Assembly (NCBI GenBank): GCA_963841435.1
Contig: CAWJCS010000002.1
Span: 96,001-160,000 of the forward strand
DNA length: 64,000 bases
Reading direction: 5' to 3'
From: an uncultured delta proteobacterium
Lineage (GTDB): Bacteria > Myxococcota_A > Polyangia > Polyangiales > Polyangiaceae
The notes beneath the pieces were generated by a model that was given only the letters and a program-made list of their open reading frames with translations, searched no databases and was not told the DNA's origin. The position numbers and the translations under genes are program-made. This document shows, in pieces, positions 12,042-63,735 of this stretch. Each line of letters opens with the position of its first letter. The first letter of the stretch is position 1.

Positions 12042-12232
12042 GATTCGTTCCAAACGTAGCGCCGGCACCCACTTGACGCGAGAGGGTCCGGGTCCGAAGT
12101 GTTTAGAGCGTGACGCTCGGCTCCCTTTCCGCCAAAATCCGCGACCTTGCCGTGTTTCCGCTGGCGTTCGTGGCGGCTTGCGGGCGCGGGCAAGGGTCGT
12201 CGGGTCCAAAACCCACCACGGAGGACAGAAAC

Positions 12233-19867: not shown

Positions 19868-19983
19868 TTTCGCGCTGCGTTCTCAGTTTACCGTCCTCTT
19901 GAAACTGGCGTCGGGGGCGGGGTTGACCCGAGGGCCGCCCTGCGGGAAAGACACTGTCGCGGTTTCATTAGCTTCACGGGTCC

Positions 19984-21623: not shown

Positions 21624-21968
21624 ATGGGCAAGTGCCGGGTCTTTTTCCCGCAGACCGTCGTGGACCGCTGGCTCGCCATCGGCGAAGCCGAGCTCACCGG
21701 TGCCGAGCTGTGGTTGCACGCCGAGCGCCGCCGCTACCGGGTCGTCGAGTCGTTGCGGGTCGTGCGCGAGGTCACGGGCACCCCGGACGCCTTCGAGATC
21801 GTGGGCCGCGTGAAGACGTTCGGCTTCGTCACGGAGCTCGGCGCCGAGCTGCTCGGCGACTCGATGATCATCGGCGATAACGCCTACGAGACCGTGCCGG
21901 GCTGGCTGGGCACGCCGCTCATCCCGAAGGGCGAGCTCGAGCGCCGCGGCTCGGGAGCGGACCACTGA
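21624..21968 (+). CDS. Hypothetical protein
   Basis: MGKCRVFFPQTVVDRWL...LGAELLGDSMIIGDNAYETVPGWLG; GC3-biased codons; TGATG coupling to ccsA. Confidence 0.7.
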   Translation: MGKCRVFFPQTVVDRWLAIGEAELTGAELWLHAERRRYRVVESLRVVREVTGTPDAFEIVGRVKTFGFVTELGAELLGDSMIIGDNAYETVPGWLGTPLIPKGELERRGSGADH

Positions 21969-22783: not shown

Positions 22784-24165
22784 TCACGCTCGTGGGGCTC
22801 TCCCACAAGAGCGCGCCCATCGACGTGCGCGAACGCTTCGCGTTGCCCAAGGAGCGCGTTCCGGAGTTTTTGCTCGAGCTCGTCGGTCGCCCCGAGGTCG
22901 GCGAAGCGCTGCTCGTCTCGACCTGCAACCGCGTGGAGCTCCTCGCGGCGGCGCGCGCGGGCAGCGACCTCGAGCTCGTCGCGGCGTCCTGTCGCGACGC
23001 GTTGCGCGTGCTCGCCCCCGACGCGCCGCCGGACGCGCTGTACTCGCTCACCGGTCCCGAGGCGGTGCGGCACCTGTTCGGCGTCGCGGCGTCGCTCGAG
23101 TCGCTCGTGCTCGGCGAGCCGCAGATCCTCGGCCAGGTGAAGGACGCCTACGAGGTCGCTCGGCGCGCCGGCACGGTGGGCGCGGTGCTTCACCGCGTTT
23201 TGGCGCGCGCCATCCACGCCGCCAAGCTCGTCCGCTCCCAGACGGGCGTGGGCTCGGGGCAGGTCTCCGTGCCCACCGTGGCGACCGAGCTCGCCCGCCG
23301 CATCTTCGGTGAGCTCCGGGGCCACGCCGTGCTCTTGATCGGCTCGGGCGAGATGGCGGAGGCCGTGGCGCGGCTGCTCGCTGCGGCAGGCGCGCGGCTC
23401 TTCGTGATCGGTCGCACGCCGGAGAAAGTGAAAGCGCTCGCCGACGCGGTCGGCGGCGAGCCGCGCGAGCTCGGCGACCTCGTGGCGACGCTGCCCGAGG
23501 TCGACATCGTCATCAGCAGCACGAGCGCGCCAAGCTTCGTGATCGAGCGCGAGCCGGTCGCGCGGGCGCGCCGCTCGCGGCGCGGGCGGAGCCAGTTCTA
23601 CGTCAACCTCGCCGTGCCGCGCGACGTGGACCCCGCCATCGAAACGCTCGACGGCGTGTTCCTCTACAACATCGACGATCTTTCGCGCGTCGTGTCCGAG
23701 TCGCTCGCCTCGCGCTGGCGCGAGGCGGAGCGCGCCCAGGCCATCATCGACGCCGAGGCCAAGAGCTTCGATCGTTGGGTCGACGCCGAGCAGGCGACGC
23801 CGACCATCGTCGCATTGCGCGCGCACATCCGCGGCTCTCTGCGCACCGAGCTCGAGCGCAGCCTCGGCGGGCGGCTCCGGCATCTGGGCGGCCCCGAGCG
23901 CGCCGCCCTCGAAACCATGCTCGAGGCGGCCGTGAATCGCATCCTGCATCGTCCGACGACGCGCCTGCGACAGGCAGCCTCGCTCGATGGCTTCGACGGG
24001 CTGGCGCTGCCCGAGCTCAGCGCGGCGCTCGAAGGCCTGTTCGGGCTGGGCGAGGCCGCCGACAGTGACGCGAGCGACGCGAGTGACGCGAGCGACGCCG
24101 TGGAGGTCGACGATGCCTTCGAGCCGGCGGCGACGGGCGAGATGGCCAAGCGGAGGCTCAGCTGA
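22780..24165 (+). CDS. hemA: Glutamyl-tRNA reductase
   Basis: VGLSHKSAPIDVRERFA, STCNRVE, SLESLVLGEPQILGQVK, GSGEMA, AVPRDVDP; GTG start overlaps the upstream TGA. Confidence 0.96.
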   Translation: MITLVGLSHKSAPIDVRERFALPKERVPEFLLELVGRPEVGEALLVSTCNRVELLAAARAGSDLELVAASCRDALRVLAPDAPPDALYSLTGPEAVRHLFGVAASLESLVLGEPQILGQVKDAYEVARRAGTVGAVLHRVLARAIHAAKLVRSQTGVGSGQVSVPTVATELARRIFGELRGHAVLLIGSGEMAEAVARLLAAAGARLFVIGRTPEKVKALADAVGGEPRELGDLVATLPEVDIVISSTSAPSFVIEREPVARARRSRRGRSQFYVNLAVPRDVDPAIETLDGVFLYNIDDLSRVVSESLASRWREAERAQAIIDAEAKSFDRWVDAEQATPTIVALRAHIRGSLRTELERSLGGRLRHLGGPERAALETMLEAAVNRILHRPTTRLRQAASLDGFDGLALPELSAALEGLFGLGEAADSDASDASDASDAVEVDDAFEPAATGEMAKRRLS

Positions 24166-25067
24166 TGGTGGATCGCGTCGTCTACGCCACGCGCAAGAGC
24201 GCGCTCGCGCTCGCGCAGTCGCGCGCGCTGCTCGAGCGCCTCGCCACGTTCCACCCCGGGCTTGAAATCGTGGAGCTTACCGTCACCACGACGGGCGATC
24301 GGATTCAGGATCGCTCGCTCACCGAGATTGGCGGCAAGGGCTTGTTCGTCAAAGAGATCGAGGAAGCGCTCGTGGAGCGCCGCGCCGACGCCGCCGTGCA
24401 CTCGCTCAAGGACGTGCCCGCCGAGCTCATGCCCGGCCTCCACCTCGGTTGCATTCCCGAACGAGAGGACGCGCGAGACGTGCTCGTGACGCGGGGCGGC
24501 GAACGGCTCGCCGAGCTACCCGCGGGCAGCCGCATCGGCACAACGTCGCTGCGGCGCGCCATCCAGCTCAAGGCGGTGCGCCCCGACATCGAAATCGTGC
24601 CGCTGCGCGGTAACGTCGATACGCGCATCCGGCGCTGCCGCGAGGGGGTGGTCGACGCCGTCGTGCTCGCTCGCGCGGGGCTCCTCAGGCTCGGGCGGGA
24701 GGGCGAGGCGACCGAGATCCTCTCGCCCGAGGTGTCGCTTCCGGCCGTCGGGCAGGGGGCGCTCGCCGTGGAGCTTCGCACGGAGGATCGAAAAAGCGCC
24801 GGCTGGTTCGCGCCGCTCGCCCATCACGAGACGGGTGTCGCCGTGGCGGCCGAACGCGGGGTCCTCTTCGCCGTCGGCGGGAGCTGCCAGACGCCCATCG
24901 CCGCCCATGCGGTCCGCGCCGGGGGGATGCTGGAGCTCCGGGCGCTGCTCGCGGAACCGGACGGCTCGCGGCTCCGCCGCGGCGAGCGGCGTGTTGTTTT
25001 TCCCGAGAACGAAGCCGAAGCGACGCGCCTCGGCCGCGATCTCGGTCAGGAGCTTTCCGCACGCTGA
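24165..25067 (+). CDS. hemC: Hydroxymethylbilane synthase (porphobilinogen deaminase)
   Basis: ATRKSALALAQS, GGKGLFVKEIE, AVHSLKDVP, GTTSLRR, LRGNVDTR, GGSCQTPI. Confidence 0.97.
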   Translation: MVDRVVYATRKSALALAQSRALLERLATFHPGLEIVELTVTTTGDRIQDRSLTEIGGKGLFVKEIEEALVERRADAAVHSLKDVPAELMPGLHLGCIPEREDARDVLVTRGGERLAELPAGSRIGTTSLRRAIQLKAVRPDIEIVPLRGNVDTRIRRCREGVVDAVVLARAGLLRLGREGEATEILSPEVSLPAVGQGALAVELRTEDRKSAGWFAPLAHHETGVAVAAERGVLFAVGGSCQTPIAAHAVRAGGMLELRALLAEPDGSRLRRGERRVVFPENEAEATRLGRDLGQELSAR

Positions 25068-33602: not shown

Positions 33603-33938
33603 CGTCGAGGACGGCCGGATAGCACAGCCTCGCACGAAGCCCCGAACTCTGACGCGAAACACCCCAAATTCTCGGGCTTCGCTCGCTTCCTCACTTTGGG
33701 CGCCAGCGCGAGGCGTCGAGGTATGGGGCTCGCCTACATGCCCATTCATGTCGCTACACGCGCCTGCCTTCGCGCTCGCGAAAGTCTTGCGGCGTCATCA
33801 CTGCGCAGGGTGACGGAGGCCCTCGCGGCGCCCGAGCGTGGCAAACGAGCACGGAGAAATTTCTAGTGCGGATAGACCGCGCCGAAGCCTGCGGTATCGG
33901 TTGCAGCTCCTGTTTCCGTACGCCAACATCAAGGTGTG

Positions 33939-35756
33939 ATGGTCCGAACGGGAACGCGTCTGAGCGCGGTGGCGCTCGCCGCCGCGAGCGTGCTCGTGCT
34001 GGGGTGCTCGTCGCTCGACGCGTCAATCACGGGCGGGCCGCCTGGGAGCGGCGCTGGCGCCTCCGGAAGCCCAAGTGGTGGCTCGGGCGGCAAGGCGGGA
34101 AGCTCGTCCATCAACGTCGGTGGCAGCAATCCATCGGGCGGCACGAGCAGCGGTGGCTCGGGTGGCTCGTCGGCGGGAAGCGGCACGGGCGGTTCCGGTG
34201 GCGGCGTCGAGCTGCCACCCGACACCGACAAGATCGATCTCTTGCCGGCCGGCATCCGCCGGCTCACGAACGAGGAGTACCGGACCTCGGTGCGAGCGCT
34301 GCTCGGCGTGGACCTGCCCGCCGGCGTGAGCCTCCCGCCCGACGCGCGCCAATCCGGCTTCACCCGCAACGACGCGCAGCGCGTCGATCCCGTGCTCGCC
34401 AAGCAACTCGACGCCGCCGCGCGCCAGGTCGCGTCCGACGCGCGCGCTCGCTTCGCGGATCTCGCTCCCTGCGACGTGCCGGCGGGCAGCGAAGCCTGCG
34501 CCGCGTCGTTCATTGACGACTTCGGAGCCAAGGCGTACCGCCGGCCCCTCACGAGCGAGGAATCGGCCTCGTTGCTCGCGCTCTATCACGTGGGCGCCGA
34601 CGAGGGCGACTACGGCGATGGTATCGAGGTCGTGATCCGCGGCCTGCTTCAGTCCGCCGGGTTTCTCTATCTCACCGAGCTCGGCGACGGCAGGGCGACC
34701 GACCCGATCATGCTGTCGCCCCGTGAGCTCGCGAGCTCGCTTTCGTACCTCGTCACGGCCCAGCCGCCCGATGACGAGCTCGTCGCCGCGGCAGAATCCG
34801 GTTCACTCGCGACGGCCGAGGGGCGCGCGACCGAGGTTTGGCGCCTGCTCAACACGGGTGCCCCGGCGCGAGCCACGGTGCTGCGCATGCTGAGGGAGTG
34901 GCTGGGTGTCGATCGCATCACGGAAACCGGCAAAGACAGCACCGTTTATCCGGACTTCACGCCCGAGGTTCGCACGGCGATGGACGGGGAGGCCGATGCC
35001 TTCCTCGACGCCGTCACGGCGAGCCTCGGCACGGTCGGCGATCTGCTGGGCGCCGACTGGACGATGGTCGATGCGACGCTCGCGCCCGTTTACGGCGTCG
35101 CCTACCCGGGTGGCGGCGGATTCCAGAAAGTCTCGCTGACCGGCACGCGACGGCGCGGCATCCTCACGCAGGGCGCCTTCCTGTCGGTCTTCGCGCACGC
35201 TTCGGAGAGTGCCCCCGTGCTGCGCGGTGTCGCGGTGCTCGATCGCATCGCGTGCCTGCCGCCTCCCTCGCCGGCGACGCTCGATCGGGCGATTCCACCG
35301 CCGCCGCAACCGAACGACACGGACACGACCCGCGAGCGCTTCGAGAACAGCCACAGCACGGACCCCTTCTGTGCCGGCTGCCACACCACGATCGACGCCG
35401 TTGGCTTCGCCTTCGAGGACTTCGACGGCATGGGCGCCTATCGCACCATGGAAAACAAAAAGACCGTGGACCCGAGCACGGCGATCTCGCTCGACATGGG
35501 CATGGACTTTTCGGGAAGCTACGCCGACAGCGCCGAGCTCGCGGCGGCGCTCGCGGCGAGCCCGTCGGTGCGGGAATGCTTCGCGCGGCACCTGTTCCGC
35601 TCCGCGGCGGCGACGAGCGGCGTCGCCGTCCAGACGAGCGAAGACGCCTACGTGGCGGCCTGGAAGAAGGACCCGCTCGCCGAGCCCGGCAGCATCGTCC
35701 AGGCGATCGTCACCTACGTCACGAGCCCGCTGTTCGCTTACCGGAGGGCCCAATGA
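33939..35756 (+). CDS. DUF1592/DUF1588/DUF1595/DUF1587 family lipoprotein with one CxxCH
   Basis: Lipobox VLGC; RRLTNEEY, FGAKAYRRPL, LQSAGFLY, ELASSLSY, RRGILTQG, PVLRG, TTRERF, CAGCH, GFAFEDFDGMGAYR. Confidence 0.88.
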   Translation: MVRTGTRLSAVALAAASVLVLGCSSLDASITGGPPGSGAGASGSPSGGSGGKAGSSSINVGGSNPSGGTSSGGSGGSSAGSGTGGSGGGVELPPDTDKIDLLPAGIRRLTNEEYRTSVRALLGVDLPAGVSLPPDARQSGFTRNDAQRVDPVLAKQLDAAARQVASDARARFADLAPCDVPAGSEACAASFIDDFGAKAYRRPLTSEESASLLALYHVGADEGDYGDGIEVVIRGLLQSAGFLYLTELGDGRATDPIMLSPRELASSLSYLVTAQPPDDELVAAAESGSLATAEGRATEVWRLLNTGAPARATVLRMLREWLGVDRITETGKDSTVYPDFTPEVRTAMDGEADAFLDAVTASLGTVGDLLGADWTMVDATLAPVYGVAYPGGGGFQKVSLTGTRRRGILTQGAFLSVFAHASESAPVLRGVAVLDRIACLPPPSPATLDRAIPPPPQPNDTDTTRERFENSHSTDPFCAGCHTTIDAVGFAFEDFDGMGAYRTMENKKTVDPSTAISLDMGMDFSGSYADSAELAAALAASPSVRECFARHLFRSAAATSGVAVQTSEDAYVAAWKKDPLAEPGSIVQAIVTYVTSPLFAYRRAQ

Positions 35757-50136: not shown

Positions 50137-50862
50137 CTAAGGCGCCAGGAAGGGCAGCGGAGTGTCCGCCCCGAGCGCGCTCGCCGCGCGCGCGTCAGTC
50201 CTTGGGGTGACGATCAGGAACGCCTGTTCGAGAACCCGCGTCCCGCCACGCTCGCGGAAGCGCGGCTCGGCGACAGTCAGATCACGCTCGTCGAGCAGCT
50301 CGATGTCAGCGCCCTCGTAGAGCGCGCGGACCTGGTCCTGATCGACGCTGAACGGTGGCCCGACCGTTTGGTCGCCGTCGTGAAAGAGCGTGACGAGCAG
50401 CGTGGGTGCCCTCGGCCGGAGCGCTCGCTTGCAGGTCGCGACGTAGCGCGGGCGATCCTCGGGGCTTAGCGCGATGAGCGCCGCGCGGTCGTACGCGGCG
50501 TCGAAGCGGTCCTCCGGCGGTAGCTCGAGCGCGAAGAAATCGCCCACGGCGATGCGCACGTCGGCAGCCTGAAGCGCGTCGAATTCGTGGAAGCGCTCGC
50601 GCGTCGGGGTGATGTTCCGCTCGCGAAAGAACGCGTCCGCCGCCTCTTCCACGAGCTCGACGCCGGTCACGCTGCAGCCGTGTCGCGCGAGCAGCTCGAG
50701 GTCCGCCGATTTCCCGGCGAGTGGCACGAGCACGTGCCGCCCGCCGTCGGGCGCGGCGGCGAGCAGCCGGTTGACGTGCGCCTTCAAGAAGGCGTTGGGC
50801 TCACCCTCGTGAAAGCCGATGAGCCCGCGTGCCCAGCGCTCGCGCCAGAAGGCCTCGTGCAT
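50137..50862 (-). CDS. Thiopurine S-methyltransferase (TPMT) family
   Basis: FWRERW...IGFH, VLVPLAGKSAD, GVEL, GDFF, YDRAALIAL, GPPFSV. Confidence 0.92.
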   Translation of the reverse strand: MHEAFWRERWARGLIGFHEGEPNAFLKAHVNRLLAAAPDGGRHVLVPLAGKSADLELLARHGCSVTGVELVEEAADAFFRERNITPTRERFHEFDALQAADVRIAVGDFFALELPPEDRFDAAYDRAALIALSPEDRPRYVATCKRALRPRAPTLLVTLFHDGDQTVGPPFSVDQDQVRALYEGADIELLDERDLTVAEPRFRERGGTRVLEQAFLIVTPRTDARAASALGADTPLPFLAP

Positions 50863-50936
50863 GTCGGAGCGAGTCCGGTAGCACGAATCCGACGGCGCCG
50901 CCCGGCGCCTGAGGAGGCGCGGGCCGAGCGGTGACG

Positions 50937-52313
50937 TCACTGTGGACGGGATGGCAGGGTCGTCGGAGCGCTACCGGTGAGCGCGAAGTACGAGTCGTAC
51001 ACGAGCTGGCGCGTGTAGACGGGGTTGTGCACGCCGCCGCCGGAGCCGCGCGCGAGCAGGAGGTAGTTGTAGACGGCGCCCGCGACGTCGGCGGCGATCC
51101 CCGATTGCGAGGCGACCTTGTCCACGGCGAACTCACGATCCGCGAGATCGGTGGAGGTGAGCGGGCCGCTGCCACGCGTGAGGAAGCCCTCCGTGTTGAG
51201 CTCGACGCGAAGCTCCTGGATGTTGTCCATCATCGCCGTCTGCTGGCCGTTGATGTCGAAGCTGTCCGGGTTCGAGTGGCAGCCCTGCTTGCCGCACGCG
51301 GAGAGCTGCGGATAAAACGAGTGATTGCCGACGCCCTGGTTGGAGGCGACCGGAGGCATGTGGCAATCGATGCAGCCGTTCGCGAACGCCTGGTGCGACG
51401 ACGTCTTGTACGTCTTGCCGCTGTAGTGATAGCCGCCCTTGCCCGTGTAGATGTCGGACTGCGGCCCCTCGTGCGGGCCCCAGTAGCCGCTGAGATTGTT
51501 GGACGCGCCGATGTAGTTGGTCACGTCCTTGCGCGACTTGTGGCACCAGATGCAAGCGTTGCCCTTGCCGTAGGGGCCCGCGGGCGTGCCGTCAACGACG
51601 CCGACCGCCGAGCTCTTTTCGAGCAGCGCTTGCTTGCCCGTGCCCGTCGGAACGCGCAGCGGGAACGAGCCCGCCTGATACGTCTCACCCGTGACGTGCG
51701 GGTCGGTCGCGGGGTCAACGTCGTGGCACGTCGTGCAGTGCACGACGGCGACGGTGGCGGTCCCTGCGTAGGTGGCCTCCGTGACACGACTGTTGGTGCT
51801 GTCGAGATAGTTGTTTTGCCCCAGCGCGGATTGGGGGCTGTTCGTGCCGTTGACGTTCACGTTGCCTGCGAGCCGCTGCTCGATGCCGTCGATCGCGTGG
51901 CAGTTGCCGCACGCCGTGGCACCCGTCCAGGTGGGCACTTCTTCTCCGCCGAGGTTCGCGATGAACGTGGCGTAGTGAGTGCTCGTCTTCCACTGCTCCA
52001 CGATGCCGGTGAAGCCGTGGCACGGCGACAGGCATGACGTCTCGAGCGTGCCCGCGGGGATCTCGCCGGGTGGTCCCGGGTCGCCGGGATCGCCCGGGTC
52101 CCCCGGCACGCCCTGCGGACCGGTCTTGCCCTGGTCTCCAGGCGGCCCGAGGTCACCCTGCTGTCCCTGCCCACCCTGCGGCCCCACGTCGCCACGCGGA
52201 CCTGCCGGCCCTTGCGCGCCGGGCTTCCCGTCCTCTCCCGAGCAGGCGAGGACAAGCGATCCCAACGCGAGTGCAACCGACAAGACAGAAGCGATGTTCG
52301 AGCGCCGAAGCAT
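50937..52313 (-). CDS. Multiheme c-type cytochrome lipoprotein with collagen-like stalk (~6 hemes)
   Basis: Lipobox LVLAC; 20 consecutive Gly-X-Y triplets; CGNCH, CTTCH, CIWCH, CIDCH plus non-canonical CLSPCH and CGKQGCH. Confidence 0.88.
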
Positions 52314-52576
52314 GTGTGACCTCCGCAGCAATGTCCCCGAAGAGAATCTCCGCCCGCGAGCGCCATCGAGCGGCGCTTCCACGCGACCATCGTCTCGTAG
52401 CCCGGGAGCCTCCCGACGTTGACCCTTCATGACCGCTACTCTCGACACTCAGCAATTCGGTAAGGTCACGCACCGATGACAGCGACGTTGCGGCCGCAGG
52501 GAAAGAGAGGCGCGCAGATTTATCGCGTCGTCGCGCTAGCTTCGGAATGATTTGCGCGTCACAGGACGCGCGCAAG

Positions 52577-52861
52577 TCACCGCGCAGCGTCCGAAGGTTC
52601 CTTTTGCGGCGCCGGCGGCAAGCTGCTGCCACTCGCCCGTGCCCTGCGCCGCGCAAGATCTGCGATTACCGCCAGGAGGTAACTCGAAAACGCGAGCCCG
52701 CCGAGCACGTGCCCAATGCTCATGGCGCCAATGATTGGCAATGGCTTCGGGAACAAAATCGAGAGCACGAACAGCGAAAGCGCCCCGAGCCCGAGCAAGC
52801 ACGCGACGTTGACGAGCCGCTCGATCGGCCGCGAAATGAGGCGTCTGAACAGGCCCGTCAT
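52577..52861 (-). CDS. Small two-TM membrane protein
   Basis: Two hydrophobic helices, a His at the start of TM2 (SIGHVLGG); ATGA overlap with the NapC-like gene. Confidence 0.7.
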   Translation of the reverse strand: MTGLFRRLISRPIERLVNVACLLGLGALSLFVLSILFPKPLPIIGAMSIGHVLGGLAFSSYLLAVIADLARRRARASGSSLPPAPQKEPSDAAR

Positions 52862-53649
52862 GGTCGCAGCTCCTTTTTGCCGGGCCCTTCGCTCTCGGTT
52901 GCGGCAGCCGGTGCCCGGGCCGGGCGCTGCCCTCTGCCGCTCGCCGAGCTCGACGGCGCGCCGGGCGGGCGCGGTCTAGCGGAGCTCGCTGTCGAGCCGC
53001 TCGCGCTCGGGGGCGGGTTCGATACAGAGCTCGATTCCGCGGGCTTCGTGAAGGGATGCGCATAGCCGTGGCAGCCGGCGCTGGCGCAGCTCACCTGATT
53101 CGAGGCGAGCGCTGCCTTGAGCGATTCGTGCTCGGGGACCCGCCGCCAGTCGCTGAGCGTCGTGGTGTGGCAGTGCCGACAATTCCCGTTGTCGTACGGC
53201 TTGATGAGGTGGATTTCACGCTTTGCCTGCTCGAGTGGCATCGAGCGATAACCCCCTAGATAGTAGAGATAAACATGCCGGAGGCCGCCGAGCTTGGTGA
53301 GGGCGTAGCCGAACATGCCGTAATCGGCGTGGCACACGTAGCAGCTTCGCTCGCCGAAAAAGGCGTTTCGCGAGTGGCGGGCCGCGAGCGATTGAGAGCC
53401 CAGGTTGGCTGCGTCCGTGGCGTGGGCCCCCATGACATGGCACGAGCCGCAAAACGCGCGATCGGTCGTGTGCTCGATGCCCGTGACGGTCGAGCTCGCC
53501 GCCGAGATAGCGGGCAACACGCCCAATCCGAGCAGGAGCACGAGCTTGTAGCGCAGGTCGAGCGCAGGTTGCTTGACGAGATGGAAGACCAAGATCACCG
53601 CTGCGAGGAGCGCGGCGCCCACCGCCACGACGCTGAGGGCAAGGTCCAC
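52858..53649 (-). CDS. NapC/NirT (NrfH/CymA-like) membrane-anchored tetraheme cytochrome c
   Basis: Two N-terminal TM helices; TTDRAFCGSCHVM, CYVCH, K..GLRHVY, CRHCH, CASAGCHGYAH. Confidence 0.88.
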   Translation of the reverse strand: MDLALSVVAVGAALLAAVILVFHLVKQPALDLRYKLVLLLGLGVLPAISAASSTVTGIEHTTDRAFCGSCHVMGAHATDAANLGSQSLAARHSRNAFFGERSCYVCHADYGMFGYALTKLGGLRHVYLYYLGGYRSMPLEQAKREIHLIKPYDNGNCRHCHTTTLSDWRRVPEHESLKAALASNQVSCASAGCHGYAHPFTKPAESSSVSNPPPSASGSTASSARPRPPGAPSSSASGRGQRPARAPAAATESEGPGKKELRP

Positions 53650-53776
53650 GGCGGGTAGGGTTACCTGGAACGGGACGCGCCAACAAGGGGAGCGAGTCCT
53701 CCTTCCGATTTTGCCGTGGACGAAACGACAGCGAAGCGTGCTCGCGCACCTTCTGCGCGAGTATGATGCGTCCGCC

Positions 53777-55545
53777 GTGGATCAGACCCAGCGTCAACTC
53801 CCGACGATCGTGCTCGTTCTCGCGCTGTGTCTCGCGGCGGTGTTCGCGTGCGCGGACGGCCCCCCTTCCGAGGGCAACGTGGCGCTTGGCCGTGGTGTCT
53901 ACGTCCCCGCAAAATGGCAAACGCTGCGCGAGCTCAGCGGGCACCGCGTTCACGTTCAAGAGCGCCGCATCGCCTGCACGAAGTGCCACACGTTCAGCGA
54001 CAGCGACGTGGGCCCGGTGACGCCGGCGCGCTGCGCGGCCTGCCACGAGGACGAAGCGCGCATCGAGCACGCCACGGCGCAGGCCGCCGCGAAGTTCGGC
54101 CCCGGCACGACGGCGGACTGTCGAAGTTGCCACGCGTTCACTCTCGACGGCACGGGGCACCCGCCGCCCGACGCCGGCGACGTGCTCGGCTTCGAGCCGA
54201 GCGACTGCACGCGCTGCCACCAGTCGGCACAGGGAGACCTCCCGGCAGTGACCGTCCATGGCTCGACGACGTGCACGAGCTGCCACCACGTGCACGAGAG
54301 CACGAAGCCGGCGCCCGCGTCCTGCGAAGAGTGCCACGCCGATATCACGACGGCCCATGGCGGCCCGTCGCAGGGCGTCGTCGAACGTTGCACCACCTGT
54401 CACCAGCACCAGCACGCCGAGGCCAAGGACGCCGTGGGCAGCTGCACGGACTGCCACGCCACCCACGAGCCCAAGGTGCCACAGACCGCTCTCTTCGCCG
54501 ACGGGCACGCCGAGTGCACCGCCTGCCACCGGCCCCACGCGTTCGGCAAGAGCGAGACCGTCGCGTGCCGCACGTGCCACGAGGACGTTCATGTGCTCGC
54601 TTCGACGAAGGTCGCTGCGCATCAAGCCTGCACGAGCTGCCATGCGCCGCACGACGTGCGCGGCGCGCCGCAGCAGGCCTGCGTGCGCTGCCACTCGAGC
54701 GTCCACCCCGACCACCCCGTGAAGGGCGCCGCCGGCACCTGCGTCGGATGCCACGACCCGCATCCGACCATGGGGGCGCGCGCGCCGCTCGCGAAACCCT
54801 GCGCCTCCTGTCACCCGAACGCGCTCGCCGATCACGGCTTTCACTCCGAGATCGCTTGCCAGCACTGTCACGAGCCGCATCACTTCGCGCTCGATGGGGC
54901 CGATCGCACACCGTGCGCGGGATGCCATCAGGGCGAGGTCGCCCACGCGACGGCCCTCGCGGGCCACGCGAGCTGCGAGGGTTGCCACCGCGGGCTCCCG
55001 CACCGCCCGTCGTCGCTCAAGGTCGGCTGCGAGTCGTGCCACGCCGGGATCGTCCACGCCGCGCGCGAGGGTCACGAGAAATGCCTCGGCTGCCACGAGC
55101 CACACGGCGGAGCTCTTCAGACGCCGTGCGGGCAATGTCACAAGGCGGAGCTCGCGAGCGCGCCGCGCGGGCACCAGACCTGCACGGGCTGCCACGATCC
55201 GCACACCGGGTCCCCGGCCGCAAAGCCCTGCGAGACCTGCCACGAAAAGGAAGCGGCGTCGGCCCACGGATTGATTCGGAGGGGGCTGCCTCGGGTGCCA
55301 CCGCCCGCACGGCCCCGGGGGTCTCGCTCAGCCCAAGGCGTGCACGAGCTGCCACGACGTTCGGAACCCTGCCCGGCCTTCACCGCGAGGTGAAGCACCA
55401 GGCGTGCAATCGCTGTCACACGGGGCACGGCGCCGCTGACGCCGCACCTCGCGCCGTGTGTGTCGCCTGCCACACTGATCGCGCTCGCCACTTCCCCGAC
55501 GCCGAGCGCTGCACGGGTTGCCACATCTTCAACCAGCACCGCTAG
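53777..55545 (+). CDS. Very high-heme c-type cytochrome lipoprotein (27 CxxCH after repairing two +1 frameshifts at ~55276-55285 and ~55360)
   Basis: Lipobox AVFAC; 22 CxxCH in the first frame, CLGCH and CTSCH in the middle frame, CNRCH, CVACH and CTGCH in the last frame. Confidence 0.88.
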
Positions 55546-55560
55546 CGCGAGCGGTAGGCG

Positions 55561-57258
55561 TTAGTTCGGCAGCTCGAACGTGACCTGGCCGTTAACGTGC
55601 AGATCGGGCCGGACGAACGTGACGTTGTCCTTGTCGAGGTCCTTGTGGCACGCGCTGCAGTCGGGTGATTGGTTGACGTAGGGATGCGGCCGGGGCGGCG
55701 GCAGGCCGTGGCAGGTGCCGCACTTCGCCTCGCTGCCGTTGACGCGCGTCCAGCTCGGAGTCGTGTGAGACCCGCCGGATCCGTACGCCGACGGGAACAC
55801 GGCGCCATGGCACGCGGACTCGACGCACCGGCCGTTCTCGTAGCGTGGTGTCGCGCCGAACGAAAGCGCGGCGCCCGAGAAGACGACCTCGGCCGGCAGG
55901 TCCGAATCGAGGTGCCCCTTTGCGAGCACGTCGGCGGGTACTTCGTGGCACTCGGCGCAAGGCACGGGGCGCGCGCGGCCGTTTTCCACGAGGTGCGCCT
56001 GATGGGCGCCGACGGCCGCTTGGGACGTGAGCGTCTCGCCGAGCACGCCCAGCGGTGGCGCAGCGTTCTTCTTGCCCCCGTGGCACGCGCTGCAATCGTC
56101 CGTGACCACGACATCGACGATGCCGTTGACGTGACGCGCTCGATCGACGATGTGCATCGAGTCGTTGACGACGTTGGCGTGACAGTTTTCGCACCGCGCG
56201 CTCCGCGGGTGCGGGGGCGGGGGCGGCGCACCGTGGCAGCTCGTGCAGGAAAGCTCGGTCGCTTCCGTCCAGAGCGGTGACGTGCCGTGGCGTTCGCCGG
56301 GGCCGTGGCAGTACGTGTCGCTGCAGGTCGCGAGCTCGTGGTCCCAGCGCGGCGCATGGTCGCGCGTCGCGGCCACTCCCGTCAGCGTGACCTCGGCAGG
56401 CGGCTCGTCGATGTGCGTTTCGTCCTCGACGCGCTCGGGCACGCGGTGACATTCGGTGCACTCGAGCGGGCGCCCCGCGCGGCCGCCGCCGAGGTGCGCC
56501 GCGTGCGCCCCCACGCCCAGGGACGAGACCTCCATGTGTCCCAACGTGTCGAGCGGCGGCGCCGGGTTCTCGCCTTCGCCGTGGCAGAGCGTGCACGTGT
56601 CGGCGCCCGCGCGATACTCGACCGTGCCGTTCACGTGCAGCTCGGGCGCGATGATGCGCTGATTTTCGTCGACCACGTCAGCGTGGCACACCGAGCAGCG
56701 CGTCGACGCTGGGTGCGGCGCCGGCGGCGGCAGCGCGTGGCAAGTTCCGCACGCCTCGCCGCTCGACCTCGGCAGTGACCACACGGCGCGAGCACCGCGA
56801 TGGCAGTAGCTGTCCCTGCAGGTCTGACCCGCCGCGTCGTAGCTCGGGTGGTGGTGGTCCGTGCGCGCGAGCGGGCCGAACACGAGCTCGGCGGGGCGTG
56901 CGCTGTCGGCGTGTCCCGGCGAATCCACGCGCTCGGGCACGACGTGACATTCCGTGCACGCGAACGCCGGGTGCGTCGCCGACCCCTCGAGGTGAATCGA
57001 GTGGGCACCGACCCCCGGGTAGCTCGGGTCCGTGGCGCCCGAGAGGTCGGCGGGCGGGGCCGAGCGCGCGAGAAAATCCCCCGGCCGCGCGGGATCGCCG
57101 TGACAGCCCGTGCAGCGCTCCTCGCGCGCAGGCTCCGGCCGCTCGCGCGACTCGAGACAGCTCGGCAAAAGCGCGGCGAGCGCGCCCGCCGCCATGAAGA
57201 GCGCGAGCGTCGCGCTCGCGAGGCGCCGCCGACGGGAAGAGCGCTCTACGTCAGCCAT
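55561..57258 (-). CDS. CxxxxCH/CxxCH-domain multiheme cytochrome lipoprotein (15 heme motifs, three repeated modules)
   Basis: Signal ending LLPSC; 12 CxxCH and 3 Cx4CH (CRDSYCH, CSDTYCH, CVESACH); repeated GAH..H and HVNG motifs. Confidence 0.88.
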   Translation of the reverse strand: MADVERSSRRRRLASATLALFMAAGALAALLPSCLESRERPEPAREERCTGCHGDPARPGDFLARSAPPADLSGATDPSYPGVGAHSIHLEGSATHPAFACTECHVVPERVDSPGHADSARPAELVFGPLARTDHHHPSYDAAGQTCRDSYCHRGARAVWSLPRSSGEACGTCHALPPPAPHPASTRCSVCHADVVDENQRIIAPELHVNGTVEYRAGADTCTLCHGEGENPAPPLDTLGHMEVSSLGVGAHAAHLGGGRAGRPLECTECHRVPERVEDETHIDEPPAEVTLTGVAATRDHAPRWDHELATCSDTYCHGPGERHGTSPLWTEATELSCTSCHGAPPPPPHPRSARCENCHANVVNDSMHIVDRARHVNGIVDVVVTDDCSACHGGKKNAAPPLGVLGETLTSQAAVGAHQAHLVENGRARPVPCAECHEVPADVLAKGHLDSDLPAEVVFSGAALSFGATPRYENGRCVESACHGAVFPSAYGSGGSHTTPSWTRVNGSEAKCGTCHGLPPPRPHPYVNQSPDCSACHKDLDKDNVTFVRPDLHVNGQVTFELPN

Positions 57259-58306
57259 GGCAATACCGGCACATGCCGTCGAACACGCCGCGGCTCGTGC
57301 GGAACGTGCCGGGCGGGTGGGGGTTGCCGCCGTAGCCGCCAACCTTGTGGCAACGGATGCAGTTGGTCGCAGGGCCCTGATCGTGACAGCCGGCGCAGGC
57401 GAGGATGTCGCGCCGTGCCTCGATGCCGTGCTGGCTGTGCAGGCGCGTGTCGTTGCCCACCCAGCCCGGCGGGTGGGGGCTCCGTCCCATGAGCAGCCCG
57501 GCGCTCACGCCGCGCGCGGCGTGGCAGCCGTCGCAGCTCGAGACCTCGTGGCACGCGAGGCAGCGCGTTGGTGACGCCGAGGCCTCGAGCGCGTGGCGCG
57601 TGAGAAAATCCGCACGGTGCACGAAATGCCGTTCGAGCTCATCCGGGTGGCGGAGCTCGACGCGCATCACCTGAGACGTGTCGTGACAATCGTCGCAGTC
57701 GGACTGGCCGTGGCAGGCCTGGCAAAGCTTCCCCTCGTGCGGCACGTACTCGCCGTGCCGCCGCGCGAAATCGCCGTCGTGGCGCAGGAAGGTCGCCGGC
57801 ATGAGCTTTACGAGGTCTTCCTGCTCGTGGCACGGCACGCAGGTTCCGGCATTCCATTCGTCTCGATGCTGGTGGCAGCCGAGGCAAGTGCTCATGGGCG
57901 GCAGGAGCGGCTTTTCATCCTCGACGACGCCCGCGTGGCACGGCACGCACTGCCCCCTGAGCTCGGGCATCGCCAGGTGCTTCGAGTGGTCGAAAGTGAT
58001 GCTGCCGTACGGTTGCGCCGGCAGGACGGCGAGCACGCGTTCGACGTCTCCCTCGTCGTCATGGTGGCAACGGTCGCACTGGGTCTTGGAGGGCAGGTGG
58101 TGCGCCCGGTCAACGGCGCTCGCGGTGTGGCAGCTGTTGCAGTTCAGGCACGAGGGCTGCCCGGGCTTGCCACACGCGACCTCCGCGAGGTGCGTGCGGT
58201 GCGGGAAGCGCGCGGGGCGCGGGTCGCTGCAGGCGGCGAGCACGGCGGCGCCGAGCACGACCACGAGCAAGAGCAAAACGAGCGGTTCCAGACGCCGCGA
58301 GCTCAC
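57251..58306 (-). CDS. Dodecaheme cytochrome c3/c7-like lipoprotein
   Basis: GTG at 58306 after a purine-rich tract; VSSRRLEPLVLLLLVVVLGAAVLAAC lipobox; FPH..H and FDHSKH; 12 CxxCH motifs. Confidence 0.85.
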   Translation of the reverse strand: MSSRRLEPLVLLLLVVVLGAAVLAACSDPRPARFPHRTHLAEVACGKPGQPSCLNCNSCHTASAVDRAHHLPSKTQCDRCHHDDEGDVERVLAVLPAQPYGSITFDHSKHLAMPELRGQCVPCHAGVVEDEKPLLPPMSTCLGCHQHRDEWNAGTCVPCHEQEDLVKLMPATFLRHDGDFARRHGEYVPHEGKLCQACHGQSDCDDCHDTSQVMRVELRHPDELERHFVHRADFLTRHALEASASPTRCLACHEVSSCDGCHAARGVSAGLLMGRSPHPPGWVGNDTRLHSQHGIEARRDILACAGCHDQGPATNCIRCHKVGGYGGNPHPPGTFRTSRGVFDGMCRYCHG

Positions 58307-59719
58307 CGCGCCCCCCTTCTCGTGACGTTCGAAGGCATAGCCGAGTCTGAGCTCGGCCTGCGCCTCGAGCGAGGCGTACGGCGTGTGCGAAAGCGATGCT
58401 CCCGCCATGACGTCGAGCCCCACGTCGAACTCTCGCCGTAGGGTCGCGGCGAAGACGCTCGACGAGCGGTAATCGGCGATCGCGCGGTCGTAGTAGTACT
58501 CGTAGAGATCGAGCGTGCCGGTCACGGCGCGCACGAGCCGGCTCGATAGCGAGCTACGAACGGCTTGGTAGCCATTGTCGGGTGCGAGCAACCGCTCGTA
58601 GGAGACGAGCGCGAACGCGTGATGGGCGCGTGAGAGCGTGAAGCGCGCGGTCCCGCGCGCGCGCGCGCCGGGGCCGCCCTCGGAGTAGACCTCGACGCCC
58701 GCCTCGCCGTCGAGCACGACGGGCCAGGGCGTACGGATCGTCGCGACGACGAGCGCCTCCTCGAAGCTCGTCGTGTTGAACACCGACAGCACCGACTGTC
58801 GCGACAGGAGCAGCGAGGGCTCACTGTGGGAAAGCTCGACGCTCGCGTCGAGTGCCGGCACGGGTGTCGTGCCGACCGAGACGCGCAGGTCCGCGACGCG
58901 TCGCGAATCGAGATCGACGAGCGCGACGCCCCGCACCTCGGTCGCGTCCTCGAGCGCCGCGCGGCCGTCGAGCGCGAGGTTTCGGTGGGCAAGACCGCCG
59001 GTTTCGTGCGCTTCGTGGAAGGAAAGACCGACGGCGGCGTCGTCCGACGCAAAGCCGAGGCGGCCGCCGAACAGAAAGTGATCGAGTCGCGTGAGGTCGG
59101 CGTACGCGTCGGGGCTCCTCATGACCTCGCTCGAGACGGCCCCGAGGTAGCGATACGACGGGCGCTGGTCCCAGCGCGGTAGAACGGAGAGCCCGAAGTA
59201 GGCGCGGGCGTCGAGGCCCTTTCCGAGCTCGAGCTCACCGAGCGCGCCGTCGAAACGCGCGAAGCGCGCGGCGCCCCCCGCGACCATCTGCCGGCCGACC
59301 TTGACGCTCACGGGCCCGCGATGGATGCGTACGTTGGCGGCCTGCACGTCGCCGTCGAGACGGCGCTCCCCGTCGAGGGTCCCGGGCACCAGCTGGCCGT
59401 ACGCCGAGAGCTCGAGGTCGAGAGTGTCGCTGCCGAGCGCCGTATCGAGATCGACGACCCTGAGCGCCACGTACTCCGAGAGCGGCAACAGTGTGTTTTC
59501 CTCGACGAGCGCGCCCTCGCTACCCGGCAAGAGCGCGCGGCGAAACAGCGTCGCGTGAGTTTCGGCGTGAGCGCTGAGCACGTAGCGATCGATCGACGCG
59601 TCTGCTGCGGGCGTGTCTCGGCCTTGCGCGCGCGCGGCGAGCGGCCAGCCGAGGCTGAGCGAGACGAGCAGCATCCACCTGCCGCGCATGCCAGCTAAGG
59701 CCCATAGCTCGGGTCGCAT
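58303..59719 (-). CDS. Putative outer-membrane beta-barrel (porin of a porin-cytochrome conduit); fused in frame to the dodecaheme in the raw sequence
   Basis: Signal peptide (PLAARAQ), alternating amphipathic strands, KVGRQ...RFDG motif, terminal strand LRLGYAF. Removing one base at ~58328 gives a TGA overlapping the cytochrome GTG. Confidence 0.75.
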
Positions 59720-62223: not shown

Positions 62224-62256
62224 TTGACAAATCTGTAGTCGGCTACAATATTGTAG
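62224..62256 (+). promoter_or_regulatory. Sigma70-type promoter overlapped by palindromic operator(s) upstream of TetR
   Basis: TTGACA at 62224-62229; TGTAG-tcgg-CTACA at 62234-62247; perfect palindrome CTACAATATTGTAG at 62243-62256; AT-rich island. Confidence 0.7.
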
Positions 62257-62263
62257 TACGTTC

Positions 62264-62935
62264 ATGTCTGAGCGTCCTCCAAATCCAGGCCGACGCGAGC
62301 GGAAACGGCTCGAAACGCGGGGAAAAGTGCTGCGTTCCGCCACGGCGCTGTTCGCCGAGAAGGGCTACCAAAAGACCACGATGGAGGACGTCGCGGCCCG
62401 CGCCGACGTGGGGGTTGGCACCCTGTACAACTACTTTTCCTCGAAGGAGGGGCTCCTGCTCGCGGTCTTCGAGGACGCGACGGAGCCTTTGCTCACGCAG
62501 GCCCAGGCGGTGGTGGCGGAGCCAGGCACGGACGCTGAGGGGGCACTGCTCGGCTTGCTCGAGACGTTCGAGCCGCTCGCGACCTTGTTCGACAAGGCGG
62601 TGCTGCGCGAGATGCTCGCCGCCGCGATGCTTCAGCCTGCCGACCAGGTGGAACAGTTCGCGACGCTCGACGCCAAGCTCGCCGCGAGCATCGCGGAGCT
62701 CTTGTCCAAGCTCGCCGAACGCGGTGCGATCACGCGTGACCTCGACCTGGAAGCGGCCGCCATGGCCCTCTACGGTGCGCTCACCATTTCCACGCTGCTC
62801 TATCTCAGCGTGAGCGACATGGACCAAGGGGCCTTGCGCGAAATGGTTCGCCGGCAGGTCGCTGTCCTCTACGCGGGCCTCGCACCCGCACGCGCGCCGG
62901 AGCGTTCGCCCGACGCCAGAAAGAACGAGAAATGA
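62264..62935 (+). CDS. TetR/AcrR family transcriptional regulator
   Basis: RRERKRLETR...LFAEKGYQKTTMEDVAARADVGVGTLYNYFSSKEGLL HTH. Confidence 0.95.
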   Translation: MSERPPNPGRRERKRLETRGKVLRSATALFAEKGYQKTTMEDVAARADVGVGTLYNYFSSKEGLLLAVFEDATEPLLTQAQAVVAEPGTDAEGALLGLLETFEPLATLFDKAVLREMLAAAMLQPADQVEQFATLDAKLAASIAELLSKLAERGAITRDLDLEAAAMALYGALTISTLLYLSVSDMDQGALREMVRRQVAVLYAGLAPARAPERSPDARKNEK

Positions 62936-63735
62936 CACCAGCTCGCTTTCGGGTACGGCGGGGCATCGTGCTCGCCTTTCTCGGGTTTCCGCTCGTCGCC
63001 GTGATGCCGCGCACCGCGCATGCCGACGAGCTGACGAGCCTCATCGATCGGGCCGACCAGGCTTTTCGTGGCAAAACGAGCGCCGCGGTGCTCAGCATGG
63101 ACGTCAAGACAGAGCGGTACTCGCGTCACTACAAGCTCGTCATCTGGGACGATGCGCGGGGAAAAGACAAGACGCTCGTGAAAATCCTCGGACCTACGTC
63201 GTTCCGGGGCTTTGCGACGCTCAAGGTCGGCAACCAGCTCAAGCTCTACGACCCGAAGACCAACCACGTGCAGGTGGTCGGCAGCTCGATGCTCGCCGAC
63301 AGCTGGATGGGCAGCCATTTCTCGAACGACGACCTCGTCAAGGAAACCCGACTCGCCTACGACTACGCCGCAACGCTCGTCGAGAAGCACGGCGGCAAGG
63401 ACGCCGCCGGGCGACCGGCGACGATCTATCGCATCAAGCTGCTTCCGAAACCGACGGCGCCCGTGGTGTGGGGGCGAATCGAGTTCGAGCTCTCCGACGG
63501 GGGAGGCAAGGTCATGCCGATCAAGAGCACGTACTTCACGCGCGCGGCCGATCAGAAGCCGGCGCGCGCGCTGACGTTCTCCGTGCCCAAGGAGCTCGGC
63601 GGTCGGCTCGTGCCGACCGTCCTCGAGGTGCGCGTCGCCGACAAGCCGGGGGAGTACACGCGCCTCACGTACGAGGAGCTCCGCTTCGACATCGCTATCC
63701 CCGAGAGCAAGTTCACCGAGCAGGCGCTGCGCTGA
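62932..63735 (+). CDS. Outer-membrane lipoprotein-sorting (LolA-like) protein
   Basis: Signal peptide (TAHA-DE), SWMGSHFSNDDL, FTEQALR terminus; followed by an ABC permease. Confidence 0.85.
   Translation: MTPARFRVRRGIVLAFLGFPLVAVMPRTAHADELTSLIDRADQAFRGKTSAAVLSMDVKTERYSRHYKLVIWDDARGKDKTLVKILGPTSFRGFATLKVGNQLKLYDPKTNHVQVVGSSMLADSWMGSHFSNDDLVKETRLAYDYAATLVEKHGGKDAAGRPATIYRIKLLPKPTAPVVWGRIEFELSDGGGKVMPIKSTYFTRAADQKPARALTFSVPKELGGRLVPTVLEVRVADKPGEYTRLTYEELRFDIAIPESKFTEQALR

Follow-up and report, generated by a model that had tools for sequence, protein, structure and literature searches.

A candidate porin-cytochrome electron conduit conserved among uncultured Polyangiaceae

Analysis of a 64,000-nt stretch of DNA from an uncultured member of the Polyangiaceae (contig CAWJCS010000002.1 of assembly GCA_963841435.1, positions 96,001 to 160,000; the whole stretch is referred to below as the window) pointed to a cluster of seven genes at positions 50937-59719, which, at a probability that we put at roughly 65%, encodes an electron conduit of the porin-cytochrome type that spans the cell envelope and is specific to uncultured Polyangiaceae. 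The case is carried by the gene content of the cluster, the beta-barrel fold of one product, the linkage and translational coupling of the barrel gene to a 12-heme cytochrome gene, the predicted insertion of that cytochrome into the barrel, and the association of these genes with alternative quinol-oxidase modules in related loci. In such a conduit, a tetraheme protein of the NapC/NirT family and its partner with two transmembrane segments (2-TM) would exchange electrons with the inner-membrane quinone pool, and a 27-heme c7-type polymer lipoprotein would relay them across the periplasm. The C-terminal two-thirds of the 12-heme cytochrome, threaded through a barrel of ~22 strands with its lipidated N-terminal third in the periplasm, would then carry electrons across the outer membrane, and a 15-heme lipoprotein and a collagen-stalked 6-heme protein would take them up outside. 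The final acceptor would be insoluble or macromolecular, such as Fe(III) or Mn(IV) minerals, humics, or a partner cell.

Given the high G+C content (~70%), genes were called from the GC content of third codon positions (GC3) and from heme motifs rather than from the length of open reading frames (ORFs). The seven genes are arranged in three transcription blocks (Table 1). A minus-strand block starts with the barrel gene at 59719, continues with the 12-heme and 15-heme genes, and ends at 55561; the 27-heme gene lies on the plus strand, convergent with the 15-heme gene and divergent from the NapC gene; and a second minus-strand block holds the NapC/NirT tetraheme gene, the gene for the 2-TM protein, and the 6-heme gene, in that order. 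An earlier note on this DNA had described seven contiguous genes with about 64 heme motifs in a Polyangiaceae-like host. All seven are present, although they do not share one strand, and the count of C(x2-4)CH motifs is 4 + 6 + 12 + 15 + 27 = 64; CxxCK is absent throughout the cluster in the motif scan. The four cytochromes with 27, 15, 12, and 6 motifs, which the note had taken for lipoproteins, each have a lipobox-like cysteine that is kept in the orthologues; these calls combined a regular expression with inspection for a hydrophobic signal segment and a lipobox with an invariant cysteine. The host assignment also holds: the named relatives of the serine hydroxymethyltransferase (SHMT), at 75-88% identity, come from metagenome-assembled genomes (MAGs) of Polyangiaceae or Myxococcales.

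The predicted barrel and its 12-heme partner

An AlphaFold2 model of the barrel protein, built from 40 sequences (mean predicted local distance difference test [pLDDT] score, 80; predicted TM score [pTM], 0.73), consists of a signal helix followed by 23 strand elements between residues 45 and 468, which fits a barrel of ~22 strands. Among the matches listed by a Foldseek comparison with PDB, there were only outer-membrane barrels (the FimD and PapC ushers, AlgE, Occ porins, and chitoporins), at TM scores of 0.25-0.53 and 7-13% identity; the predicted fold class is clearly that of a beta-barrel, and the fold matches indicate no specific family. The earlier note had made its interpretation depend in advance on this product folding as a barrel, and the model and its barrel-only matches bear this out. 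No barrel family of Pfam or NCBIfam recognized the protein, the ORF of 822 aa in which it is found (see below) having Cytochrome_C7 as its sole Pfam match and no match in NCBIfam (E ≤ 0.01), and a profile of the barrel family found 0 PDB sequences at E ≤ 10. Relatives are nevertheless numerous. We found 198 at E ≤ 1e-3, of which the 120 listed are 367-538 aa long, except for the 822-aa protein of the window itself; the homologues stop 5-7 residues past a "..Y.FD" strand, typically with "...G.R". A profile search of 1.84 billion representatives (50% identity) returned 602 barrel relatives at E ≤ 1e-3, including 196 at E ≤ 1e-30, and the neighbors of the barrel in the ESM Atlas are unnamed clusters from Myxococcota and Gemmatimonadota. 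For one more distant (second-tier) barrel, the relatives that carried names were labeled just "Deltaproteobacteria bacterium" and "Polyangia bacterium."

The gene that follows is tied closely to the barrel gene. A scan of one genome per species gave 88 loci with a barrel relative, of which 80 were kept, and the 12-heme gene lies directly after the barrel gene in 78 of them, the other two loci stopping at a contig edge. The frame of the 12-heme gene is that of the barrel gene +2 in 78/78 loci, and in 76 of the 78 the TGA of the barrel gene overlaps the 12-heme start by 4 nt (ATG in 45, GTG in 28, and TTG in 3). One relative of 774 aa (P0320) is naturally fused: a family barrel runs directly into 13 CxxCH motifs, with no signal peptide between the two parts. 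The cytochrome itself is similarly constant, with exactly 12 motifs in 68 of 71 complete orthologues and a lipobox in 68 of 69; its profile matches the c7-type dodecaheme cytochrome 3ov0_A (3.9e-11, residues 28-137).

Modeling of the barrel together with the 12-heme protein gave a score of 0.79 (0.36, 0.79, and 0.79 in the separate runs), against 0.05 for the best of three controls. Among solved complexes, 58 of 80 attain the mark for such scores, as do 2 of 110 mismatched pairs; these counts apply only approximately, because custom alignments were used. The runs share at least 20% of their contacts, and the pLDDT of the partner is at least 62. The model thus favors binding of the 12-heme protein inside the barrel, short of demonstrating it. 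The predicted interface is formed by alternate residues on nearly every barrel strand and by residues 137-324 of the cytochrome (its C-terminal ~190 residues), and it contains the invariant motifs GRQ..GGAAR.ARFDG and SRQSVLSVF, the latter in a loop that is disordered in the monomer model. Of the 48 invariant barrel residues, 27 fall within the 129-residue interface (hypergeometric p, 6e-5), although residues facing the lumen may be conserved for other reasons. The lipidated N terminus and roughly the first five hemes of the 12-heme protein lie outside the barrel in the model; we infer that this part is on the periplasmic side, because the natural fusion protein joins the cytochrome to the C terminus of the barrel. 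Neither chain resembles Mtr proteins in sequence. Taken with the barrel fold and the gene linkage, the contrast between the complex model and its controls supports the interpretation of the earlier note that the cluster provides an electron path across the envelope.

The other cytochromes, the related loci, and the direction of electron flow

The 15-heme protein, whose gene shares its first 8 nt with the end of the 12-heme gene, matches TIGR01904 in three stretches (101.5 bits; cutoff, 27) and PF09698 (23.2 bits; cutoff, 21.7). The pattern of 12 CxxCH and 3 CxxxxCH motifs is found in 39 of 60 complete orthologues, and most of the others differ in the number of modules, from 8+2 to 24+6 motifs; heme numbers in the family thus lie between 10 and 30 and mostly change by one 5-heme module at a time, as would be expected of an extensible outer wire. 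By regular expression, a lipobox followed by "CLERRD" is present in 52/60. The 27-heme protein matches PF14522 (3e-15) and PF14537 (2e-13), a lipobox is found in 32 of its 35 orthologues, and its matches among PDB sequences are weak ones to small tetraheme cytochromes (E, 0.002-0.003). Searches of PDB chains with the sequences of the 6-, 12-, and 15-heme proteins gave collagen matches, weak c7/c3 matches, or none.

The earlier note had described a NapC/NirT tetraheme with a coupled 2-TM partner, and both were recovered. The tetraheme protein belongs to the family by its match to PF03264 (50.9 bits; gathering cutoff, 24.1) and falls far under the equivalog cutoffs for NrfH (37.2 versus 134.2), TorC (33.4 versus 478.2), and the NapC/NirT subfamily (29.9 versus 310.6). 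Its pattern of three CxxCH motifs and one CxxxxCH is kept in 32/34 orthologues, and on sequence grounds it is presumed to be an inner-membrane quinol dehydrogenase. NapC proteins usually have one membrane anchor; this one has two conserved hydrophobic segments ahead of the heme domain and a long Pro/Ser/Ala-rich C-terminal tail. The 2-TM protein, whose gene adjoins the NapC gene in 30 of the 80 loci, has no match in Pfam or NCBIfam; an alignment of 28 orthologues shows the conserved motifs "AC," "P..L.V...MS.G...G," and "AV..D."

The 6-heme protein has one CxxxCH, four CxxCH, and one CxxxxCH motif in its head domain. Its lipidated cysteine is followed directly by 20 unbroken G-x-x triplets that match PF01391 (Collagen; 36.9 bits; cutoff, 27.2), and in 23 of 24 complete orthologues the cysteine likewise precedes 8-22 collagen-like triplets; the lipobox was found in 20/24 by regular expression and in 3 more by eye. 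The AlphaFold2 model of the head is poor (pLDDT, 56.5). From this low-confidence model, the best fold matches were OcwA (6i5b) and the undecaheme S-layer cytochrome of Carboxydothermus (6qvm), with E values of 0.012-0.023 and a TM score of 0.32, and NrfA structures were among the matches as well. The resemblance of the head to OcwA and NrfA is weak and may serve as a lead only.

Table 1. Positions of the features discussed, in the window unless a related locus (L) is named
Feature	Position	Strand	Remarks
Barrel gene	58303-59719	-	~472 aa; Sec signal peptide ending ARA/QG; end given as the family stop (TGA of GTGA)
Homopolymer in barrel gene	58311-58316	-	G6 on coding strand (C on plus strand); puts barrel out of register with GTGA at 58303-58306
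12-heme lipoprotein cytochrome	57251-58306	-	GTG start; lipobox LAAC/SDPRP; mature protein, 326 aa; 12 CxxCH
15-heme lipoprotein cytochrome	55561-57258	-	Three 5-heme CxxxxCH/CxxCH modules; 12 CxxCH + 3 CxxxxCH
27-heme c7/c3-type polymer lipoprotein	53777-55545	+	Lipobox Cys at 53849; GTG start at 53777 or 53738; two frameshifts
NapC/NirT tetraheme	52858-53649	-	3 CxxCH + 1 CxxxxCH; two N-terminal hydrophobic segments (1-30, 34-56)
2-TM protein (94 aa)	52577-52861	-	Two hydrophobic segments; ATG overlaps NapC stop by 4 nt (ATGA)
6-heme lipoprotein	50937-52316	-	Lipidated Cys codon, 52242-52244; G-x-x run, 52059-52238; 373-aa head, 50940-52058
9-heme/cytochrome b561 fusion	L017:14586-16325	-	Adjoins 6-heme NapC-like proteins and multiheme polymers
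9-heme/cytochrome b561 fusion	L012:18220-20373	+	Adjoins 6-heme NapC-like proteins and multiheme polymers
MtrC/MtrF-domain (II/IV) cytochrome, 8-10 hemes	L017:6386-9133	-	PF22113, 1e-56; collagen repeat
MtrC/MtrF-domain (II/IV) cytochrome, 8-10 hemes	L012:6277-8742	-	PF22113, 1e-47; collagen repeat

The related loci show which of these genes belong together. Scored by tblastn with the window proteins (E ≤ 1e-5), the barrel was present in 80 of the 80 loci, the 12-heme protein in 78, the 15-heme protein in 67, the NapC protein in 35, and the 2-TM protein in 30; the 27-heme protein was scored in 59 (weak cross-hits included) and the 6-heme protein in 32 (weak hits included). We also applied bit-score thresholds to a stricter set, the 39 loci flanked by 9 kb or more on either side, in which the barrel and 12-heme genes were present in 39, the 15-heme gene in 38, the 27-heme and NapC genes in 21, the 2-TM gene in 19, and the 6-heme gene in 15. 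The co-conservation on which the earlier note had also made its reading depend is thus seen most strongly for the barrel and 12-heme genes (78/78), followed by the 15-heme gene (38/39) and the 27-heme and NapC genes (21/39). In 17 of the 39 loci the trio of barrel, 12-heme, and 15-heme genes stands alone within 9 kb at these thresholds, which indicates that partnership with the NapC module is not obligatory. The order and orientation of the modules vary (L013, L014, L033, and L043), and two MAGs have two loci each on separate contigs (L001 and L080; L061 and L065). All 80 locus titles are those of MAGs; the titles that give a family all give Polyangiaceae, and one title reads Sorangium sp. The genes that flank the cluster in the window (TPMT, two unnamed ORFs, and an ABC-F ATPase) were found in 0/80 loci, and one doubtful ORF was found in 2/80. 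The TPMT methyltransferase gene (PF05724, 5e-50; positions 50137-50970, minus strand) lies directly downstream of the 6-heme gene and was considered as a component of the conduit; it was rejected on this absence from the related loci and is probably unrelated. Bacterial relatives of TPMT methylate selenium and tellurium compounds.

Inspection of four loci that lack the NapC module (L012, L017, L080, and L001) revealed what may take its place. The neighbors of the trio in the first three include c7/c3 polymers of 33-34 hemes (29-34 hemes for the polymers beside the cytochrome b561 fusions), 9-heme domains fused to cytochrome b561, 6-heme NapC-like proteins of 557-706 aa, a Rieske/cytochrome b pair (L080), two NrfC/NrfD pairs, and a sigma-54 two-component system; L001 carries no additional cytochrome module within 10 kb. 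A 9-heme domain fused to cytochrome b561 is the makeup of Geobacter CbcL, and judging from their sequences these proteins and their neighbors may form an alternative inner-membrane module for the outer-membrane trio. Cytochromes with MtrC/MtrF domains are also encoded in two of these loci, and with the collagen repeat that they carry, collagen-like stalks appear to recur on different cytochrome heads in these MAGs. The pairing of the trio with several quinol-oxidizing and surface modules suggests that it is a portable unit, a pattern expected of a conduit for extracellular electron transfer.

The variable order of the two modules, together with the absence of the NapC module from 17 of the 39 fully flanked loci, would also suit a different arrangement, in which the NapC, 2-TM, and 6-heme genes form an operon for an NrfH/NrfA-like periplasmic reductase (of nitrite, hydroxylamine, or a sulfur or selenium oxyanion) that merely lies beside a separate trio. 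Consistent with this, the best NCBIfam match of the tetraheme is NrfH (TIGR03153, 2.7e-9), and the 6-heme head matches the NrfA family PF02335 (Cytochrom_C552; 19.5 bits; E, 5e-4) over its last two hemes and C-terminal helices, besides an octaheme nitrite reductase in the PDB sequence search (E, 0.32) and NrfA folds. The statement of the earlier note that the cluster contains no catalytic reductase was therefore unsafe, given this NrfA similarity and the weak OcwA/NrfA fold matches. However, all NrfA and NrfH scores are under the curated cutoffs (24.1 bits for PF02335) and CxxCK is lacking, so that the head is not assigned to NrfA; its best fold matches are the extracellular reductases OcwA and 6qvm rather than NrfA; the protein is a stalked lipoprotein, with the same stalk found on outer-membrane cytochromes of the MtrC family in other loci; and the module, including the 27-heme wire, lies beside the trio in 21/39 loci. 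We therefore consider a separate periplasmic reductase very unlikely.

The direction in which a conduit would run is less clearly indicated, and we give outward flow only a modest preference over inward flow. MtoAB and PioAB, with a CymA-type protein, are thought to take up electrons, and the conduit described here could likewise draw electrons at the cell surface, by oxidizing Fe(II), Mn(II), minerals, reduced humics, or a partner cell, and pass them to the quinone pool or a periplasmic oxidase. No sequence feature fixes the direction, and proteins of the NapC/NirT family can act as quinol/quinone oxidoreductases either way. The hosts have aerobic relatives, making O2 a possible sink, and the Rieske/cytochrome b pair beside the trio in L080 is typical of quinol oxidation towards high-potential acceptors. 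The large presumed surface cytochromes (15 hemes, and the stalked decahemes with MtrC domains) and the CbcL-like modules fit metal reducers rather than the minimal Mto/Pio systems, however, and neither Cyc2 nor another iron-oxidase marker was seen in the window. On balance an inward conduit appears unlikely.

Several points weigh against an outward trans-envelope conduit as proposed. The complex model was built without hemes, and its confidence may owe part to the solved MtrAB complex, which has a similar general design. All 80 loci are MAG records, with no cultured genome among them, and the trio-only loci make up a large share of those fully flanked. The model of the 6-heme head is poor, and the 6-heme gene runs in the same direction as a gene resembling NrfH, an arrangement compatible with a periplasmic enzyme too. 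The copy in the window has three frame disruptions, for which decay is conceivable (see below), and the support for the conduit is computational throughout.

Frame disruptions in the window copy

The earlier note had called the conduit apparently complete, which applies to its gene content and not to its reading frames: the conduit in the window is interrupted or misassembled at three places. One of these lies in the barrel gene. The separate barrel gene ending at 58303 that had been proposed corresponds to the family pattern, which has a stop there; in the window no in-frame stop exists at this position, and the barrel and 12-heme genes form a single ORF of 822 aa (57251-59719, minus strand), the database record of the protein being likewise 822 aa long. 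The stop/start GTGA of the family is still present at 58303-58306, and a run of six G residues lies eight bases upstream of it. With one G fewer (five), the barrel would finish with "...HEKGAR*" on the TGA of this GTGA. We attribute the barrel-cytochrome fusion ORF to this G6 run, which is one base above the family pattern; such a fusion is found in 0/78 related loci, and the barrel has its own stop in 78/78.

The other two disruptions lie in the 27-heme gene, whose motifs are spread over three frames (22 + 2 + 3) with two frame changes, each +1, near 55275-55285 and 55361-55369. Orthologues are colinear with all three frames (for example, L028 protein residues 16-511, 508-536, and 539-592), and 32 of the 35 complete orthologues have the 27 motifs within a single ORF, which together point to two frameshifts in the window gene. 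The first is at a G5 run, and the second is away from any long homopolymer. GC3 is 0.84-0.85 in all pieces, and every heme motif is intact.

One further disruption, which bears on the quality of the assembly, was detected outside the cluster. The gene of an Lhr-type helicase (7655-12248, minus strand) consists of overlapping frames at 7655-9880 and 9699-12248, and the split falls inside the DEAD_assoc domain, with profile positions 1-88 in one ORF and 90-191 in the other.

It is possible that the three disruptions in the cluster are real mutations and that the conduit is a decaying remnant no longer made in this genome, which would be compatible with the proposed function of the family. Three disruptions in 8.8 kb stand against one (Lhr) in the remaining 55 kb, the chance that at least three of four randomly spread events fall inside the cluster is ~0.01 by simple arithmetic, and the second 27-heme frameshift is not at a long homopolymer. 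However, detection outside the cluster was by split Pfam domains only and is far less sensitive, and G/C homopolymers (G6 and G5) account for two of the three sites. Megabase contigs are typical of long-read assemblies, which are prone to homopolymer-type errors; the contig has 1,195,417 bases, and the homopolymer contexts favor sequencing error. The intact GC3 and heme motifs indicate that any decay would be very recent, and the natural barrel-cytochrome fusion (P0320) suggests that fusion need not abolish function. Decay seems rather unlikely to us.

Elsewhere in the window, a block of heme-supply genes (21881-25067, plus strand), 26 kb from the cytochrome cluster, encodes a protein of the cytochrome c assembly family (PF01578), a 521-codon ORF that by its position is probably glutamyl-tRNA reductase, and porphobilinogen deaminase. 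A frameshift suspected in this hemA gene was ruled out, the ORF at 22600-24165 being intact. A TetR-family regulator gene followed by the gene of a LolA-like outer-membrane lipoprotein-sorting protein (PF17131, 9e-30) lies at 62228-63735 (plus strand), ~2.5 kb beyond the barrel gene. A protein with planctomycete-type PSD3/PSD4/PSD5/PSCyt3 domains (DUF1587, DUF1592, DUF1595, and DUF1588) and a single CxxCH is encoded at 33876-35756 (plus strand). A 540-aa protein at 19972-21594 (plus strand) matches the Stigma-specific STIG1-like family (PF04885, 2e-35), an unusual annotation for a bacterium that probably reflects a cysteine-rich repeat. Scans of the window found 0 Rfam families, 0 tRNAs, and 0 promoter-like sites, and terminator-like sites numbered 6, against 4.5 expected.

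Relation to known conduits and meaning for the Polyangiaceae

In the CymA and MtrCAB proteins of Shewanella, a NapC/NirT quinol dehydrogenase feeds a cytochrome threaded through a barrel, with lipoprotein cytochromes beyond. The cluster resembles this system in its NapC/NirT-family protein, in the cytochrome placed inside the barrel by the complex model, and in its lipoprotein cytochromes. It differs from MtrCAB in having 12 rather than 10 hemes in the inserted cytochrome, ~22 rather than 26 barrel strands, and a lipidated inserted cytochrome. MtrB and PioB have ~26 strands and ~700 aa, a size well above the 472 aa and ~22 strands of the barrel described here, which also has no match to them in Pfam or NCBIfam, MtrB being absent among the fold matches listed. 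The 12-heme protein is likewise outside the MtrA/DmsE family (TIGR03508), with 12 motifs rather than ten, no NCBIfam match, and an E value of 0.91 for MtrA (6r2q_A) against its profile. In this respect the earlier note, which had found the parts unlike MtrA and MtrB, was right.

Other known cytochromes resemble single components. The c7 polymer GSU1996 of Geobacter (3ov0) is matched by the profile of the 12-heme protein, and the 27-heme protein also consists of closely spaced c7/c3 motifs, a spacing in which long periplasmic "wire" cytochromes resemble it; unlike the Geobacter polymers, the 12- and 27-heme proteins are lipoproteins. An ESM Atlas cluster of 345-aa c7-type cytochromes from Myxococcota (526 members; score, 0.95) is a lead only. 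The 6-heme head has its best fold matches in OcwA of Thermincola and the Carboxydothermus protein 6qvm, two extracellular terminal reductases related to NrfA; the 6-heme protein differs from them in having 6 rather than 9 or 11 hemes, a lipid anchor with a collagen-like stalk, and a diderm host.

The closest precedent in design is the porin-cytochrome conduit (Pcc), compared here by its published description. The gene arrangement given for it by Shi et al. (2014, PMC4245776) is present in the window: a porin-like gene, an adjacent multiheme gene, and a 15-heme lipoprotein gene. The order of porin, periplasm-side multiheme protein, and outer-membrane multiheme lipoprotein is that of the Geobacter OmbB-OmaB-OmcB proteins. 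As described in the same paper, the two-gene pcc clusters of Anaeromyxobacter, which shares the phylum, encode a porin and a periplasmic cytochrome with 12 hemes and 338-344 aa (e.g., Adeh_3392), similar in size to the 12-heme protein of the window; a barrel of about 20 strands rather than 26 is a further likeness, and a porin-cytochrome fusion (GM18_3465 in Geobacter sp. M18) is also on record (PMC4245776). The suggestion of the earlier note that this might be an uncharacterized type of conduit thus stands insofar as it is not Mtr and falls insofar as published Pcc arrangements already include a porin with a 12-heme cytochrome of ~340 aa after it; on this precedent, "12 rather than 10 hemes" is not new in itself. 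Set against that description, the window conduit differs in that its inserted cytochrome is a conserved lipoprotein coupled to the barrel by a 4-nt overlap, that its outer cytochrome is built of 5-heme modules of TIGR01904, and that the cluster adds the 27-heme wire, the NapC-type protein with its 2-TM partner, and the collagen-stalked hexaheme. In a 2022 preprint (10.1101/2022.03.26.485925), MAGs of Myxococcota rank first for novel multiheme clusters, which means that, as far as that account goes, the general idea is already in print; our literature searches found no published account of the conserved architecture, the barrel family, or the collagen-stalked cytochromes, although Supplementary Table 2 of the preprint, a list of novel Myxococcota cytochrome clusters, may include some of the proteins. 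A preprint on extracellular electron transfer in peat (10.64898/2026.05.27.727921) had no text matching these subjects, and PMC10809760 went no further than a mention of FeGenie screening. We conclude that the cluster represents a real, strongly conserved porin-cytochrome conduit and is a variant of the Pcc design of Geobacter and Anaeromyxobacter rather than an Mtr system.

The barrel family, with 602 representatives at 50% identity, is unannotated, and gene finders for extracellular electron transfer may overlook it where they rely on models of Mtr, Pcc, or FeGenie. Design principles for electron transfer across membranes and outside the cell could be tested on the strict coupling of barrel and cytochrome, on the natural fusion, and on the cytochromes with collagen-like stalks. 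More tentatively, we speculate that uncultured Polyangiaceae might respire extracellular solids by means of their own family of conduits, with the terminal cytochromes held on lipid-anchored, collagen-like triple helices as a trimeric "stalked cytochrome" appendage; its heads could be an OcwA-like hexaheme in the window and MtrC-type decahemes in sister loci. We regard this as a possibility, still doubtful, rather than as a probable account. A stalk of 60 residues would be ~17 nm long, from the textbook rise per residue, and a stalked cytochrome, if real, would be a means of reaching minerals distinct from a soluble shuttle, a cytochrome filament, and a pilus.

Soils, sediments, groundwater, and sludge all harbor Polyangiaceae in abundance, and the family is regarded as aerobic; the uncultured members are relatives of aerobic predatory and cellulolytic myxobacteria. 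The conserved genes of the proposed envelope-spanning conduit are present in at least 80 genomes at species level, all of them uncultured. The conduit would offer these organisms electron exchange with metals, humics, or other species under oxygen limitation, and it would thereby alter the reading of their ecology and of their contribution to the cycling of iron, manganese, and carbon.

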